From a phage, in sequence record PZ386974.1: DNA of 64,000 nucleotides. One strand, 5' to 3'. Each line of letters opens with the position of its first letter. The first letter of the stretch is position 1. The position numbers and the translations under genes are program-made. Positions 8,275 to 63,036 of this stretch are shown piece by piece. Under the pieces are notes generated by a model. The model was not told the DNA's origin. It saw only the letters and a program-made list of their open reading frames with translations, and made no database searches.

Positions 8275-9843
8275 ATGACTACTATCAAAACTAAAGCTCA
8301 GCTCGTAGACAAATGGAAAGAACTGCTGGAAGGTGAAGGCCTGCCGGAAATCGCTAATAGCAAGCAGGCTATTATCGCTAAAATCTTCGAAAACCAGGAA
8401 AAAGATTTCGAAGTATCCCCTGAATATAAAGACGAGAAAATCGCTCAGGCATTTGGTTCTTTCTTGACCGAAGCTGAAATTGGTGGTGACCATGGTTATA
8501 ATGCTCAGAACATCGCAGCAGGTCAAACCTCTGGTGCAGTAACACAAATTGGGCCGGCAGTTATGGGTATGGTTCGTCGTGCTATTCCTAATCTGATCGC
8601 TTTTGATATTTGTGGTGTTCAGCCTATGAACAGCCCGACCGGTCAGGTATTTGCTCTCCGTGCAGTATATGGTAAAGACCCTATCGCTGCTGGCGCTAAA
8701 GAAGCTTTCCATCCGATGTATGCCCCAGACGCGATGTTCTCTGGTCAGGGTGCTGCTAAGAAATTCCCAGCTCTGGCTGCTGACACTACTACTGTTGTAG
8801 GTGATATCTATACTCACTTCTTCCAAGAAACTGGTACCGTATATCTGCAAGCTTCTGCTATCGTAACACTTGATTCTAGTGCAACTGATGCAGCTAAATT
8901 AGATGCAGAAGTTAAGAAACAAATGGAAGCTGGTGCACTGGTAGAAATCGCTGAAGGTATGGCTACTTCTATCGCTGAACTTCAGGAAGGTTTCAACGGT
9001 TCTACCGATAACCCATGGAATGAAATGGGCTTCCGTATCGATAAACAAGTTATCGAAGCTAAATCTCGTCAGCTGAAAGCTGCTTACTCTATCGAATTAG
9101 CACAAGACCTCCGTGCAGTACACGGTATGGATGCTGATGCTGAACTGAGCGGTATTCTGGCTACAGAAATTATGCTAGAAATCAACCGTGAAGTTGTTGA
9201 TTGGATTAACTACTCTGCACAGGTTGGTAAATCTGGTATGACCCTGACTCCGGGTTCTAAAGCTGGCGTATTTGACTTCCAGGACCCGATTGATATCCGT
9301 GGTGCTCGTTGGGCCGGTGAAAGCTTTAAATCTCTGTTGTTCCAGATTGATAAAGAAGCAGTTGAAATTGCTCGTCAAACCGGTCGTGGTGAAGGTAACT
9401 TCATTATCGCTTCCCGTAACGTAGTTAACGTACTGGCTTCAGTTGATACTGGTATTTCTTACGCTGCGCAGGGTCTGGCTTCTGGTTTTAATACCGACAC
9501 TACTAAGTCTGTATTTGCCGGTGTACTTGGTGGTAAATACCGCGTATACATCGACCAGTATGCTAAACAGGATTACTTCACCGTTGGTTACAAAGGCGCT
9601 AACGAAATGGATGCAGGTATTTACTATGCTCCTTACGTTGCACTTACCCCGCTGCGTGGTTCCGATCCTAAGAACTTCCAGCCGGTAATGGGCTTTAAAA
9701 CTCGTTACGGTATCGGTGTTAACCCGTTTGCTGAAAGTTCCCTGCAGGCTCCAGGTGCTCGCATCCAGTCCGGTATGCCGTCTATCCTGAACAGCCTTGG
9801 TAAGAACGCTTACTTCCGCCGTGTATATGTAAAAGGCATCTAA
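8275..9843 (+). CDS. 23: major capsid protein gp23
   Basis: 522-aa ORF; strong T4-like codon bias; matches T4 gp23 length and sequence by recall. Confidence 0.96.
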   Translation: MTTIKTKAQLVDKWKELLEGEGLPEIANSKQAIIAKIFENQEKDFEVSPEYKDEKIAQAFGSFLTEAEIGGDHGYNAQNIAAGQTSGAVTQIGPAVMGMVRRAIPNLIAFDICGVQPMNSPTGQVFALRAVYGKDPIAAGAKEAFHPMYAPDAMFSGQGAAKKFPALAADTTTVVGDIYTHFFQETGTVYLQASAIVTLDSSATDAAKLDAEVKKQMEAGALVEIAEGMATSIAELQEGFNGSTDNPWNEMGFRIDKQVIEAKSRQLKAAYSIELAQDLRAVHGMDADAELSGILATEIMLEINREVVDWINYSAQVGKSGMTLTPGSKAGVFDFQDPIDIRGARWAGESFKSLLFQIDKEAVEIARQTGRGEGNFIIASRNVVNVLASVDTGISYAAQGLASGFNTDTTKSVFAGVLGGKYRVYIDQYAKQDYFTVGYKGANEMDAGIYYAPYVALTPLRGSDPKNFQPVMGFKTRYGIGVNPFAESSLQAPGARIQSGMPSILNSLGKNAYFRRVYVKGI

Positions 9844-9867
9844 TCTTAATTGATTAAATCTTATTTT

Positions 9868-9892
9868 GGGAGACTTCGGTCTCCCATTTTTG
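9868..9892. terminator. rho-independent terminator GGGAGAC-ttcg-GTCTCCC + T-run after gene 23
   Basis: 7-bp GC stem with UUCG tetraloop followed by ATTTTTGG; same 25-mer recurs at 57319 and (reverse strand) 48993. Confidence 0.65.
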
Positions 9893-9895
9893 GTT

Positions 9896-10165
9896 TTATT
9901 TCTGTGCAATTTCGATGTAAGTTTTCAAAATATTTTGCCAATTAGGCATACCTTCTTGGTCATATGCCGGAGAACCGTCTTTGTTTTTGAATGATGCAAG
10001 TTTATCGGTGGCCCAATAACCTTTAGCTCGAGCTTCAGAATCAACTTTCATCCATACTTTGTTGAAGGCATTACCATTAACTTTTGCACCATATTTTTCT
10101 ACTAACTTAACTGCTTCAGCTTCCAGAACTTTTAAAGTATCTCGTAAGAAACGTGCTTTAGTCAT
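9896..10165 (-). CDS. hypothetical protein (antisense small gene between 23 and 24)
   Basis: 89-aa ORF with GAGGAG RBS and upstream early-type promoter; sits where I recall T4 carrying segD (uncertain). Confidence 0.55.
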   Translation of the reverse strand: MTKARFLRDTLKVLEAEAVKLVEKYGAKVNGNAFNKVWMKVDSEARAKGYWATDKLASFKNKDGSPAYDQEGMPNWQNILKTYIEIAQK

Positions 10166-10195
10166 TTTGTTTACTCCTCTGTAGTTGATAAGTCT

Positions 10196-10225
10196 ATAGT
10201 ATCATATACCAAATACGTTGTAAAC
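10196..10225 (-). promoter_or_regulatory. T4 early-type promoter (GTTTACA-N17-TACTAT) for ORF 9896-10165
   Basis: minus-strand GTTTACA, 17-nt spacer, TACTAT; same architecture at several other minus-strand gene starts. Confidence 0.45.
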
Positions 10226-10231
10226 AATCTT

Positions 10232-10239
10232 TATAAATA
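10232..10239 (+). promoter_or_regulatory. T4-type late promoter TATAAATA for gene 24
   Basis: exact TATAAATA about 28 nt upstream of gene 24 ATG. Confidence 0.6.
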
Positions 10240-10266
10240 ATCTATATCACATAAGGAAAAAATGCA

Positions 10267-11550
10267 ATGAGTAAAATCCAAAAATTATTGCGTGAATCTA
10301 CAACGTCTACCAGCAACTCAATTGGTCGCCCAAATCTCGTTGCTTTGACTCGCGCTACGACTAAATTAATATATTCTGACATTGTAGCAACACAAAGAAC
10401 TAATCAACCTGTTGCTGCTTTTTATGGTATCAAATATCTTAACCCAGATAACGAATTCACATTTAAAACTGGCGCTACTTATGCGGGTGAAGCTGGATAC
10501 GTAGACCGAGAAAAAATTACTGAGCTCACAGAAGAATCAAAAGTCACACTAAATAAAGGCGATTTTTTCAAATATAATAATATCGTCTATAAAGTGTTAG
10601 AAGATACACCATTTGCAGATATTCAAGAAAGTGATCTAGAATTAGCTCTTCAGATTGCAGTCGTTCATTTAAAGGTACGGTTATTTTCAGATGCAGCGGT
10701 AACAAGCAAATTTGAAAGCTCTGATAGCGAAATTTCTGATGCAAGATTCCAGATTAATAAATGGCAAACTTCAGTCAAATCTCGTAAACTTAAAACTGGT
10801 CTCACGGTTGAATTAGCGCAAGATTTGGAAGCGAATGGATTTGATGCCCCTAACTTCTTAGAAGATTTGCTTGCTACTGAAATGGCAGATGAAATTAATA
10901 AAGATATTCTTCAGTCTTTAATTACTGTATCGAAACGTTATAAAGTTACTGGAATTACTGACACTGGATTTATTGACTTGAGCTATGCGTCAGCTCCAGA
11001 AGCAGGTCGTTCATTATATCGAATGGTGTGTGAAATGGTATCACACATTCAAAAAGAGACAACTTATACTGCAACGTTTTGTGTAGCCTCAGCTCGTGCA
11101 GCTGCTATTCTTGCTGCTTCTGGTTGGTTAAAACATAAGCCAGAAGATGACAAGTATCTTTCACAAAATGCTTATGGATTCTTGGCAAATGGATTACCTC
11201 TTTACTGCGATACCAACAGCCCGTTAGATTATGTTATTGTGGGTGTTGTAGAAAATCTCGGCGAAAAAGAAATTGTAGGGTCCATCTTTTATGCTCCATA
11301 CACTGAAGGAGTAGATTTAGATGACCCAGAACATGTCGGTGCTTTTAAAGTTGTAGTTGATCCAGAAAGCTTGCAACCGTCTATCGGATTATTGGTTAGA
11401 TATGCTTTATCAGCAAATCCTTACACAGTGGCAAAAGACGAAAAAGAAGCGAGAATAATTGATGGTGGGGACATGGATAAAATGGCAGGACGTTCAGACT
11501 TGTCTGTTTTACTCGGTGTTAAATTGCCTAAAATTATTATAGATGAATAA
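10267..11550 (+). CDS. 24: head vertex protein gp24
   Basis: 427-aa ORF, T4 gp24 length; gp23 paralog. Confidence 0.93.
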   Translation: MSKIQKLLRESTTSTSNSIGRPNLVALTRATTKLIYSDIVATQRTNQPVAAFYGIKYLNPDNEFTFKTGATYAGEAGYVDREKITELTEESKVTLNKGDFFKYNNIVYKVLEDTPFADIQESDLELALQIAVVHLKVRLFSDAAVTSKFESSDSEISDARFQINKWQTSVKSRKLKTGLTVELAQDLEANGFDAPNFLEDLLATEMADEINKDILQSLITVSKRYKVTGITDTGFIDLSYASAPEAGRSLYRMVCEMVSHIQKETTYTATFCVASARAAAILAASGWLKHKPEDDKYLSQNAYGFLANGLPLYCDTNSPLDYVIVGVVENLGEKEIVGSIFYAPYTEGVDLDDPEHVGAFKVVVDPESLQPSIGLLVRYALSANPYTVAKDEKEARIIDGGDMDKMAGRSDLSVLLGVKLPKIIIDE

Positions 11551-11585: not shown

Positions 11586-12584
11586 TTATGATACTAATTC
11601 AATCCATGCAGGACGCAGAACATCTTGCACCATTCGGACTAATTCTTTCTTAACAAGATTCGGATTATCAGATGATGTTAATACAATACCTTCACGAGAA
11701 GTTTCTTCCAGAATATCTTGAACAGTCAATCCCATCACTTTACCAAAATCTTTTGGCGTTACAGTCCCAATCTTAGAAATCACATTATTAATACGATTTA
11801 ATGTAACATAACAAGCTAGAACATCAATCAAGTTTTTGTCAGTTTCGGTTAATGGAACCTGAGTTTTAATAGGCTTATCAGACTTTTTCTTTTCACTGAA
11901 TTTAGAGTTCTTGCACTTAATAGCTACACGAGTACCGTTTGGCAGCCATTTAGGGAAACAGGGCTTCAGAACATAACCTTCTGCCGTATTATCGCCAATA
12001 ACATTAGCATCAAATACGCAATTATTTGCTTCGACAAGGTCTTCCGATGCCGTGGCGTTATAAGCGGCTAAGACGGAATCAAGGTCATTTGGAATCATGA
12101 TAAGAGAATCAAATGTTCCACGTCCAAGCATTGGTGCCATTTTAAAACCGAATTCATTACAGAAATCTTGCATTTCGTAATCGGTCAAATACGTATTATC
12201 ACCACTTTCTGTATTGATAAGGATATCGAACACGTAAAAATCTTTTTCACCGTAGTCAACACCTTTCTGGATTCCACCACCAGCGAATTCACCGAATACT
12301 TGATATGATACGGCTCGAGCTGTGTACATGAATTCCTGAACGGCTTTAATAGCTTTATCATACTTCTTGAGTACGATTTCATAACCATAAAAATCTTCTG
12401 CTGGAAGAATAGGGCCTGTGCGCTTGGCGCATGTGACGTTGTCACGTTCAATTATTAACGAGAAGTTAGTCCCATGGATTTTCTCACGTGCTACCCAAAC
12501 ACCAGTAGTCAAACCATTAGTGTAGAGTTTTTCAATAAACTTAGAGTTGTAGTGGTTTTCAAGACTGCTGTATTTCTTAAACAT
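11586..12584 (-). CDS. rnlB: RNA ligase 2 (Rnl2)
   Basis: 332-aa ORF; N-terminus [21 protein letters not shown] and KIHGTNF lysine-nucleotidyl motif match T4 Rnl2. Confidence 0.95.
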
Positions 12585-26555: not shown

Positions 26556-26585
26556 ATAGTATCACACATCCATGTGTTTGTAAAC
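26556..26585 (-). promoter_or_regulatory. T4 early-type promoter (GTTTACA-N17-TACTAT)
   Basis: minus-strand GTTTACA, 17-nt spacer, TACTAT, overlapping 3' end of alt. Confidence 0.45.
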
Positions 26586-37491: not shown

Positions 37492-37521
37492 ATAGTATCA
37501 CAACTCTACCATGTTGTAAAC
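37492..37521 (-). promoter_or_regulatory. T4 early-type promoter (GTTTACA-N17-TACTAT)
   Basis: minus strand GTTTACA, 17-nt spacer, TACTAT upstream of ORF 37226-37462 and DAHP synthase. Confidence 0.45.
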
Positions 37522-41023: not shown

Positions 41024-41053
41024 ATAGTAACACCTTCCTTGGTGTTTGTAAAC
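41024..41053 (-). promoter_or_regulatory. T4 early-type promoter (GTTTACA-N17-TACTAT) for alc
   Basis: located in the alc leader (the ORF-track N-terminal extension) just downstream of the rnlA stop. Confidence 0.45.
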
Positions 41054-42205: not shown

Positions 42206-42235
42206 ATTGTACCACAATCCTTGTGGTATGTAAAC
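42206..42235 (-). promoter_or_regulatory. T4 early-type promoter (GTTTACA-N17-TACAAT) for rnlA
   Basis: minus strand GTTTACA, 17 nt, TACAAT, then GAGGA RBS. Confidence 0.45.
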
Positions 42236-52230: not shown

Positions 52231-52260
52231 ATAGTAACACACTCATTTGAAAGCGTAAAC
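52231..52260 (-). promoter_or_regulatory. T4 early-type promoter for rnh
   Basis: minus strand GTTTACG, 18-nt spacer, TACTAT. Confidence 0.4.
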
Positions 52261-62828: not shown

Positions 62829-62874
62829 AACGTTTTATTCATTCCACTTAGTTGATATGGATATAGTACCATTA

Positions 62875-63036
62875 TCAGTGTTGATTGTAAACGGCTTTTT
62901 CTACGCTTTTAACGTAATTGGTATAGTCTTCCTGTTCGTACGAGTGTAAGGCTAAGAACAGAGCTAATAATTCATTATAGACTAAAGCCTCACGCTCACG
63001 TTCGGCCTCTACTACGTTCTGAAGATTATGACTCAT
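62875..63036 (-). CDS. hypothetical protein (asiA.5-like)
   Basis: 53-aa product from internal ATG with AAGGA RBS. Confidence 0.45.
   Translation of the reverse strand: MSHNLQNVVEAEREREALVYNELLALFLALHSYEQEDYTNYVKSVEKAVYNQH

Follow-up and report, generated by a model that had tools for sequence, protein, structure and literature searches.

A conserved small antisense gene with a probable early promoter in the slot between capsid genes 23 and 24 of T4-like phages

Introduction

The closest described counterpart of the gene considered here is RB69ORF188c/189c of phage RB69 (PHROG 6003), whose surroundings were catalogued by Nolan et al. (2006; PMC1524935): their supplement lists an early promoter (Pe:109605, minus strand, score 29.9), and they also give a late promoter on the plus strand (Pl:109573) and a terminator at 109234–109251 labelled "23-><-RB69ORF188c". 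As the RB69 gene, its early promoter, the late promoter and the terminator were all on record in 2006, the feature itself is not new. The same paper provides the T4 early consensus, in which GTTTAC at −36 to −31 is separated by an 18-nt gap from a TAnnnT −10 box bearing a TG extension and is preceded by an A/T-rich stretch.

Comparable organizations are known from the morons (Hendrix et al. 2000) and the PeSL cassettes (Arbiol et al. 2010; PMC2839356), in which an orphan gene, equipped with a sigma-70-type early promoter of its own and a terminal stem-loop, opposes a conserved late block in direction and is found in some close relatives but not in others. The PeSL cassettes are further marked by a composite motif, namely a stem-loop in or next to the promoter that is repeated on both sides of the ORFan; they lie in hyperplastic regions, and their recombination, seen as mini-circle crossovers, was mapped to the interval between the −10 box and the Shine–Dalgarno sequence. 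The place between genes 23 and 24 also has a described occupant in T4, the homing-endonuclease gene segD; according to a review of T4 mobile elements from 2010 (PMC2988022), no promoter specific to this gene could be identified.

Genomic setting and comparison with described systems

The window, by which we mean the whole 64,000-nucleotide stretch of phage DNA that was analyzed (PZ386974.1), is about 99% identical over the full length of positions 9700–10400 to many Mosigvirus coliphages, such as PhAPEC2, APCEc01, ST0 and JS09 (megablast), and we assign its source to Mosigvirus, i.e., to the RB69-like, T4-type phages. The gene of interest, an intact orthologue of RB69ORF188c/189c, occupies positions 9896–10165 on the minus strand (ATG at 10165–10163) and encodes an 89-aa protein of 10.2 kDa with a pI of 9.5. 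It is flanked on the left by the convergent gene 23 for the major capsid protein (8275–9843, plus strand) and on the right by the divergent gene 24 for the capsid vertex protein (10267–11550, plus strand), beyond which lies rnlB (11586–12584, minus strand). This order of gene 23, ORF, gene 24 and rnlB agrees with that of PhAPEC2, where gp21, gp22 and gp23 are followed by a minus-strand hypothetical protein, gp24 and rnlB (minus). Gene 24 is single in the window and in other Mosigviruses; a tandem duplicate (24a, 24b) is found in several ORF-bearing phages, namely JS98, VR20 and those of loci L011 and L013.

A first-pass annotation of this DNA had noticed an 89-aa minus-strand ORF between genes 23 and 24, a GAGGAG ribosome-binding site, an early promoter of the form GTTTACA-N17-TACTAT and a hairpin following the ORF, and all of these are present: the ORF with its ATG start as given above; the Shine–Dalgarno GAGGAG at 10174–10179, read on the minus strand from 10179 to 10174 and located 8 nt upstream of the ATG; the promoter at 10196–10225 (minus strand); and the hairpin, which is stable, at 9867–9886, 10 nt past the ORF stop.

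RB69 has the same gene in the same position and on the same strand, with the same promoter and hairpin. Unlike the intact copy in the window, however, the RB69 reference copy is split, its annotation comprising the fragments 188c (41 aa) and 189c (29 aa); relative to the window it carries a +1 and a −1 indel, amounting to two frameshifts, together with a cluster of substitutions (L006 5292–5532). This could represent either decay in a laboratory strain or errors in the 2003 sequence. Shortened copies are also seen in mogra and 310Ecol104PP.

With the morons and the PeSL cassettes, the locus shares an orphan gene served by an early promoter of the sigma-70 type and a 3′ stem-loop of its own, an orientation against the conserved late block, placement between conserved genes, and presence or absence among close relatives; in its sequence organization it would thereby qualify as a moron. 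It differs from the PeSL cassettes in that their composite motif is absent: neither the terminator scan nor reading of the sequence revealed a stem-loop adjoining the early promoter, the only stem-loop of the gap being the gene 23 terminator. Further, whereas those cassettes reside in hyperplastic regions, the present slot is inside a conserved virion module. T4 segD, in turn, has in common with the ORF its slot, its strand, a homologous promoter-like sequence (ATTTACA-N17-TATTAT) and a homologous hairpin. The cargo is nevertheless distinct: SegD is a 223-aa protein with a GIY-YIG domain, whereas the 89-aa product of the ORF lacks a nuclease motif and is unrelated to it.

A conserved family of small phage genes

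The ORF product matches phrog_6003 with E = 5.9e-44, residues 1–89 aligning to the 90 profile positions; this PHROG is annotated as "unknown function", and the PhAPEC2 copy, PhAPEC2_170, as "similar to RB69ORF188c". In tblastn searches the protein was matched in 219 phage records, near full-length in all except two of them (217/219), with an identity of 98–99% within Mosigvirus (98.9% to many of its copies), and a family profile recovers the window ORF at 2.5e-35. More divergent copies, with 30–38% identity, are present in the same place and orientation in JS98 (Dhakavirus) and VR20 (Gaprivervirus); the named members from these genera, JS98 orf173, VR20 gp246 and VR7 gp190, are all annotated as "hypothetical protein" between genes 23 and 24. 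Three uncultured T4-like contigs from metagenomes code for further copies at 60–70% and 34% identity, and the antisense position between genes 23 and 24 is shared by PhAPEC2, JS98, VR20, RB69 and these three contigs. A scan of IMG/VR returned nine loci and no further genomic context, the loci checked being those of VR20, JS98 and IME341.

Across a range of 30–98% identity, the members of the family are 87–93 aa long and can be aligned over their entire length, beginning with Met1. Residues M1, K3, F6, N30, G31, N32, N35, A45 and Q70 are invariant in the family alignment, and among them is the NGNxxN motif that opens helix 2. Estimates of dN/dS by the Nei–Gojobori method, which are usable only where dS is unsaturated, the more distant pairs being saturated at synonymous sites, are 0.10 for JS98 versus mobillu, 0.16 for the window versus the family member P0006, and 0.09–0.13 inside the JS98 group. 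Ratios of 0.10–0.16 indicate that the ORF is under purifying selection. The sole amino-acid difference between the window protein and that of PhAPEC2 is Asp69 (codon 69, window 9959–9961); PhAPEC2, the main 62-member Mosigvirus cluster (P0001) and the 60–70% identical relatives all have Val at this position.

Outside the T4 group, homologues with 27–39% identity are encoded by the Acinetobacter phage ABPH49 (L004 3001–3267) and a related contig (L010 6001–6264), in both cases in a long same-strand run of small unknown genes, far from the head genes. Elsewhere in the window no paralogue was detected, the best other six-frame match having E = 0.0095 with a fragmentary alignment.

The checks proposed in the first-pass annotation, a homology search with the protein and a comparison of the 23–24 gap, thus brought to light a same-sized family in a shared slot. 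Its suggestion of a lineage-specific accessory function holds in so far as the gene is accessory, the slot being empty in many relatives and the RB69 copy broken, but not in so far as it is lineage-specific, with the family extending over at least three Tevenvirinae genera, uncultured relatives and an Acinetobacter phage. The annotation had also allowed that the ORF might turn out to be a truncated fragment of a known gene. Such a decayed remnant of a homing endonuclease or of some larger gene, or else a chance non-coding ORF, could be entertained given that the T4 slot holds segD and that the RB69 reference copy is fragmented. Against this, the homologues are all of the same length (87–93 aa), dN/dS is well below 1, comparison with the SegD profile gives a probability of only 0.8% (hhalign), the predicted domain is compact and confidently modelled, and an exhaustive profile search yielded solely same-sized members, short truncations of these and three artefacts, one a chimera and the others repeat proteins. 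On the strength of the SegD comparison, the conserved length, the dN/dS values and the compact model we consider both the SegD-remnant and the chance-ORF readings refuted, and give virtually no credence to any version of them. By all its sequence attributes, the ORF is a genuine, conserved small phage gene.

The predicted protein and its lack of relatives

AlphaFold2, provided with an 18-sequence alignment, produced a model with a pLDDT of 94.3 and a pTM of 0.80. Its predicted topology is H-H-β hairpin-H, with helices at residues 3–25 and 31–48, the β hairpin at 52–70 and the terminal helix at 76–88. The protein is basic (pI 9.5, charge +4.5), as is the family at large (pI 9.2–9.9 in 17 of 18 members), and the family alignment displays no conserved set of Asp, Glu, His or Cys residues of the catalytic type.

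Searches for relatives returned little beyond the family itself. Pfam gave no match above threshold; a sub-threshold match to DUF4859 (E = 0.014), obtained for the three closest members alone, was rejected as chance, since it lies below the curated cut-off and these three members are nearly identical. There were 0 matches in NCBIfam and 0 in PADLOC, the PDB sequence search gave a best E of at least 0.12, and Foldseek searches with the model returned E values of at least 0.32 against PDB and a family member only in BFVD. When 1.84 billion representative proteins were searched with a profile and without filters, only about six true family clusters, short truncations and artefacts were recovered. 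Among the artefacts, P0025 and P0026 were set aside as repeat proteins matched via low-complexity repeats, and P0023 as a chimeric contig with a JS98-type fragment. The remark in the first-pass annotation that the ORF has no GIY-YIG motif agrees with the Pfam result and with the hhalign comparison to T4 SegD, and by these profile comparisons the ORF protein is unrelated to SegD. The model thus represents a confidently predicted fold without a known relative. As neither sequence nor structure provides a functional homologue, a role can be argued from general properties only, and of these the basic pI and the missing catalytic residues have little discriminating power. Nucleic acids or acidic proteins would be fitting partners for a basic surface.

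Predicted early promoter and shared hairpin

The early promoter consists of GTTTACA (10225–10219), a 17-nt spacer and TACTAT (10201–10196), and a promoter scanner recorded it as TTTACA-17-TACTAT, the −10 box being extended by TG. Set against the T4 early consensus, the site reads GTTTAC-N15-TGATACTAT, and it combines GTTTAC, a TAnnnT −10 box with the TG extension and an A/T-rich upstream region, such that it would represent a sigma-70 promoter of the T4 early type. The upstream A/T-rich stretch overlaps TATAAATA, the gene 24 late promoter read from the sequence at 10232–10239 on the plus strand; the two promoters are back to back, and the A/T-rich sequence of the late promoter fills the place of the upstream A/T-rich region of the early one. 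The late promoter is kept as TATTTATA in all aligned gaps. Transcription of the ORF would start near 10189 on the minus strand.

A plain sigma-70 scan reports no more promoters than expected by chance (2 found, 2.0 expected). The phage-specific motif GTTTAC-N15-TGNTANNAT, on the other hand, is present in 8 copies in the window versus 0.67 expected, a count reached by none of 100 shuffles. Seven of the eight copies are perfect; all seven are on the minus strand and lie 25–34 nt upstream of an ATG opening a minus-strand ORF of at least 78 aa (30 nt in the case of our ORF), and six of them, that of the ORF included, are followed by a GAGG-type Shine–Dalgarno sequence. Given these seven perfect copies with their shared ORF and leader context, the ORF promoter appears to be one of the stereotyped early promoters of the phage. 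The six other perfect copies are situated at 26556–26585, 37492–37521, 41024–41053, 42206–42235, 52231–52260 and 62863–62892, all minus; the ORFs behind them are 78–374 aa long, and spacing and leader are strikingly uniform, with a GAGG-type leader in five of the six and no clear one at the 62863 site. Searches of the literature on RB69ORF188c, on Mosigvirus transcriptomics and on segD expression turned up no RNA or protein expression data for the ORF in any phage.

At the other end of the gene, the GC-rich hairpin (GGGAGAC-loop-GUCUCCC, 9867–9886) serves gene 23, on the plus strand, as its intrinsic terminator; for the ORF, on the minus strand, it is a 3′ hairpin. Whichever strand is considered, the hairpin folds stably (−16.1 and −13.5 kcal/mol, z = −4.2 and −4.8), and it is kept in all gaps, occupied or empty. 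The first-pass annotation had held that it can terminate transcription in both directions. However, a U-run follows the stem on the plus strand only, the ORF strand continuing with AAAAUAAG, and the terminator scan likewise reports the hairpin on the plus strand alone; since the U-tract is thus confined to the gene 23 strand, bidirectional termination is unsupported for the window phage. The ORF-strand U-tract is absent in JS98 and T4 as well, and the equivalent hairpin of VR20 has U-runs on both sides, as is expected of a bidirectional terminator. With no U-tract behind the hairpin on their strand, transcripts of the ORF may read on antisense into gene 23.

Such read-through bears on a different interpretation of the locus, namely that the antisense early RNA is itself the functional product, extending as an "anti-late" RNA into gene 23, where it would damp premature capsid expression or be cleared as double-stranded RNA. 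Anti-late RNA is established in T4, and both the missing ORF-strand U-tract in the window, JS98 and T4 and the retention of the promoter under any cargo, be it the ORF, segD or both, are in line with a function at the RNA level. Nevertheless, empty slots such as that of RB7 have no promoter, which implies that most T4-like phages manage without such an RNA; the constraint on the ORF acts at the level of the protein, its length and strong ribosome site are conserved, and VR20 possesses a proper U-tract on the ORF strand. Hence, we regard a functional RNA as quite unlikely to be what the locus is maintained for.

The 23/24 slot across T4-like phages

We compared the gap between the two genes in a phage collection, taking as its size the span of the match to a joined query made of 600 nt of the gene 23 end and 600 nt of the gene 24 start. 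The gap measures 423 nt and holds the ORF in Mosigvirus (e.g., moskry, APCEc01 and mar005P1), and about 414 nt, again with the ORF, in Dhakavirus (e.g., QL01, MX01 and LQ5). It is 83 nt long and empty in RB7 and other Tequatroviruses (20 of 20 sampled records, at 87–90% identity) and similarly empty, at about 60–80 nt, in the T4-like phages of Klebsiella, Enterobacter and Serratia that were sampled. The ORF is joined by a homing endonuclease in the gaps of about 1090 nt of the Mosigviruses mobillu and AV109, and a homing endonuclease without the ORF is present in the gap of about 800 nt of CGG4-1 (Gelderlandvirus). T4 has segD antisense in this gap, in agreement with the first-pass annotation.

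In the empty RB7 gap, the hairpin and the late promoter of gene 24 are the only elements, an early promoter being absent. Occupied slots have a common order, in which the gene 24 start is followed by TATTTATA, (G/A)TTTACA, a spacer, TG-n-TA(C/T/A)(T/A)AT, the Shine–Dalgarno sequence and the ATG, whatever the cargo. P0006 has a variant −35 element, GTGTACA; VR20 deviates a little in that its −10 box is CATAAT and lacks the TG extension; and segD of CGG4-1 is preceded by GTTTACA-N17-TAAAAT. In the alignment upstream of the cargo, the orthologous early promoter is kept in every occupied slot, including that of T4 segD. There, ATTTACA-N17-TATTAT, GGAG and an ATG are found upstream of segD (L005 6234–6300, minus strand), at a position matching that of the ORF early promoter, which suggests this element as a candidate segD promoter.

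The gap therefore appears to behave as a cassette slot that can be empty or contain the ORF, segD or both. The proposal in the first-pass annotation that the ORF occupies a former homing-endonuclease site is superseded by this picture, in which the ORF and the endonuclease are alternative or joint cargos of one promoter–hairpin cassette. The distribution also speaks to the notion that the gene was placed here by function, as a head-morphogenesis accessory acting as chaperone or regulator of gp23 and gp24. Although in T4-type genomes it is always between genes 23 and 24, its promoter is early rather than late, its orientation opposes that of the late operon, most T4-like phages, whose gp23 and gp24 are closely similar, lack it, its homologues in ABPH49 and the related contig are far from head genes, and an unrelated selfish gene can occupy the slot. 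A head-assembly role is accordingly unlikely, and in our estimation very much so.

Shared operons with homing endonucleases and probable exchange in mobillu

In mobillu, an 88-aa ORF allele of the JS98 type is followed after 3 nt by a 219-aa segD-like gene and then by the hairpin (L007 858–1787). An operon of the ORF and a segD-like GIY-YIG gene is also found in LF82-1 (L016 931–1860), and the same operon occurs in IME341 (L021 2501–3442) on a Dhakavirus-type backbone (gene 23 product of 519 aa). As mobillu, AV109 and LF82-1, with both genes, have Mosigvirus-type backbones and IME341 one of the Dhakavirus type, the two-gene cassette has crossed genus boundaries.

The flanks of the mobillu cassette are 98.3% identical to the window. 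Its sequence turns from the window type to the JS98 type just past the −10 box, at TACTATAGACTTATCAA, and reverts to the window type within gene 23, about 28 nt from its 3′ end. The upstream crossover thus falls in the same interval between the −10 box and the Shine–Dalgarno sequence as those of the PeSL cassettes. At the other boundary, the last 30 nt of gene 23 (L007 771–800, corresponding to window 9814–9843) contain 9 synonymous differences, and the 570 nt before this cluster are about 99.5% identical to the window. The cluster resembles either the terminus of a co-conversion tract or a homing-endonuclease target site that has been recoded, and the pattern as a whole is the expected footprint of a cassette exchange, possibly one driven by the endonuclease through co-conversion. 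A similarly recoded gene 23 3′ end is observed in CGG4-1, which also bears a homing endonuclease.

These observations raise the question of whether the ORF is inherently tied to segD-type endonucleases, as a helper, regulator, immunity factor or mere passenger spread by gene conversion. The shared one-promoter operons in mobillu, AV109, LF82-1 and IME341, the replacement of the native allele in mobillu by a JS98-type one with a tract end in gene 23 that fits co-conversion, and the use of a homologous promoter and hairpin by segD in T4 and CGG4-1 would all be compatible with such a tie. Yet most ORF-bearing genomes have no homing endonuclease (moskry, APCEc01, mar005P1, QL01, MX01 and LQ5, together with JS98 and VR20, which carry the ORF alone), whereas T4 and CGG4-1 have the endonuclease without the ORF. 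Likewise, the homologues in the Acinetobacter phage and the related contig lie among small genes with no endonuclease nearby, and the ORF is under purifying selection in lineages free of the endonuclease. Moreover, co-transfer would account for the movement of the ORF, not for its function. A functional dependence on the endonuclease thus strikes us as improbable.

Proposed role

Our preferred reading, to which we would assign a probability of roughly 0.6, is that the locus is an autonomous early accessory cassette of the moron type, i.e., an early promoter joined to an ORFan, inserted antisense in the 23/24 gap and coding for a small basic binding protein. Our confidence is fairly high as regards the cassette and the early gene and low as regards binding as the mode of action. 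Under this proposal, the sigma-70 RNA polymerase of the host would fire the early promoter (10225–10196) in the first minutes of infection, giving rise to a monocistronic mRNA of about 320 nt with a short leader and the strong GAGGAG site, the 3′ end of which would be set by partial termination at, or protection by, the GC hairpin held in common with gene 23. Later in infection, the shut-off of the early promoters and late transcription of gene 23 towards the ORF would silence it, as expected from established T4 biology, and the region would be taken over by late transcription of gene 23 and, in the divergent direction, of gene 24. The product is predicted to be a soluble 10-kDa basic three-helix bundle with a β hairpin. 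As it has no conserved residues of the catalytic type, it most likely acts by binding, probably in a stoichiometric manner, to a macromolecule of the host or the phage, as would a host-takeover or counter-defence factor. The ORF is probably dispensable for growth on laboratory hosts, given that most relatives do without it and that the RB69 reference has a broken copy.

A more far-reaching proposal, which we put forward tentatively as a possible though doubtful one, is that the ORF represents a class of early effectors with an orphan fold, for instance inhibitors of host defence or nucleic-acid handling, and that its cassette serves as a landing pad which segD-type homing endonucleases exploit to move both themselves and the ORF allele between genera of T-even phages. 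In that event, segD of T4 would likewise be transcribed from an early promoter.

Significance

As it stands, the locus adds one more conserved hypothetical early gene to a well-sequenced group of phages, and both the gene and its promoter were already public; the incremental points are the predicted orphan fold, the slot held in common with segD and the candidate segD promoter. Nevertheless, the number of coliphage genomes with an intact ORF exceeds 200, and many of these phages were isolated as candidate therapeutic or biocontrol agents. The confidently predicted orphan fold and this wide retention would make the protein a clean small target for screens of anti-defence and host-takeover functions. 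Likewise, the slot, with the ORF, segD or both as its cargo, offers a natural system in which to see how free-standing homing endonucleases may move their neighbouring genes.
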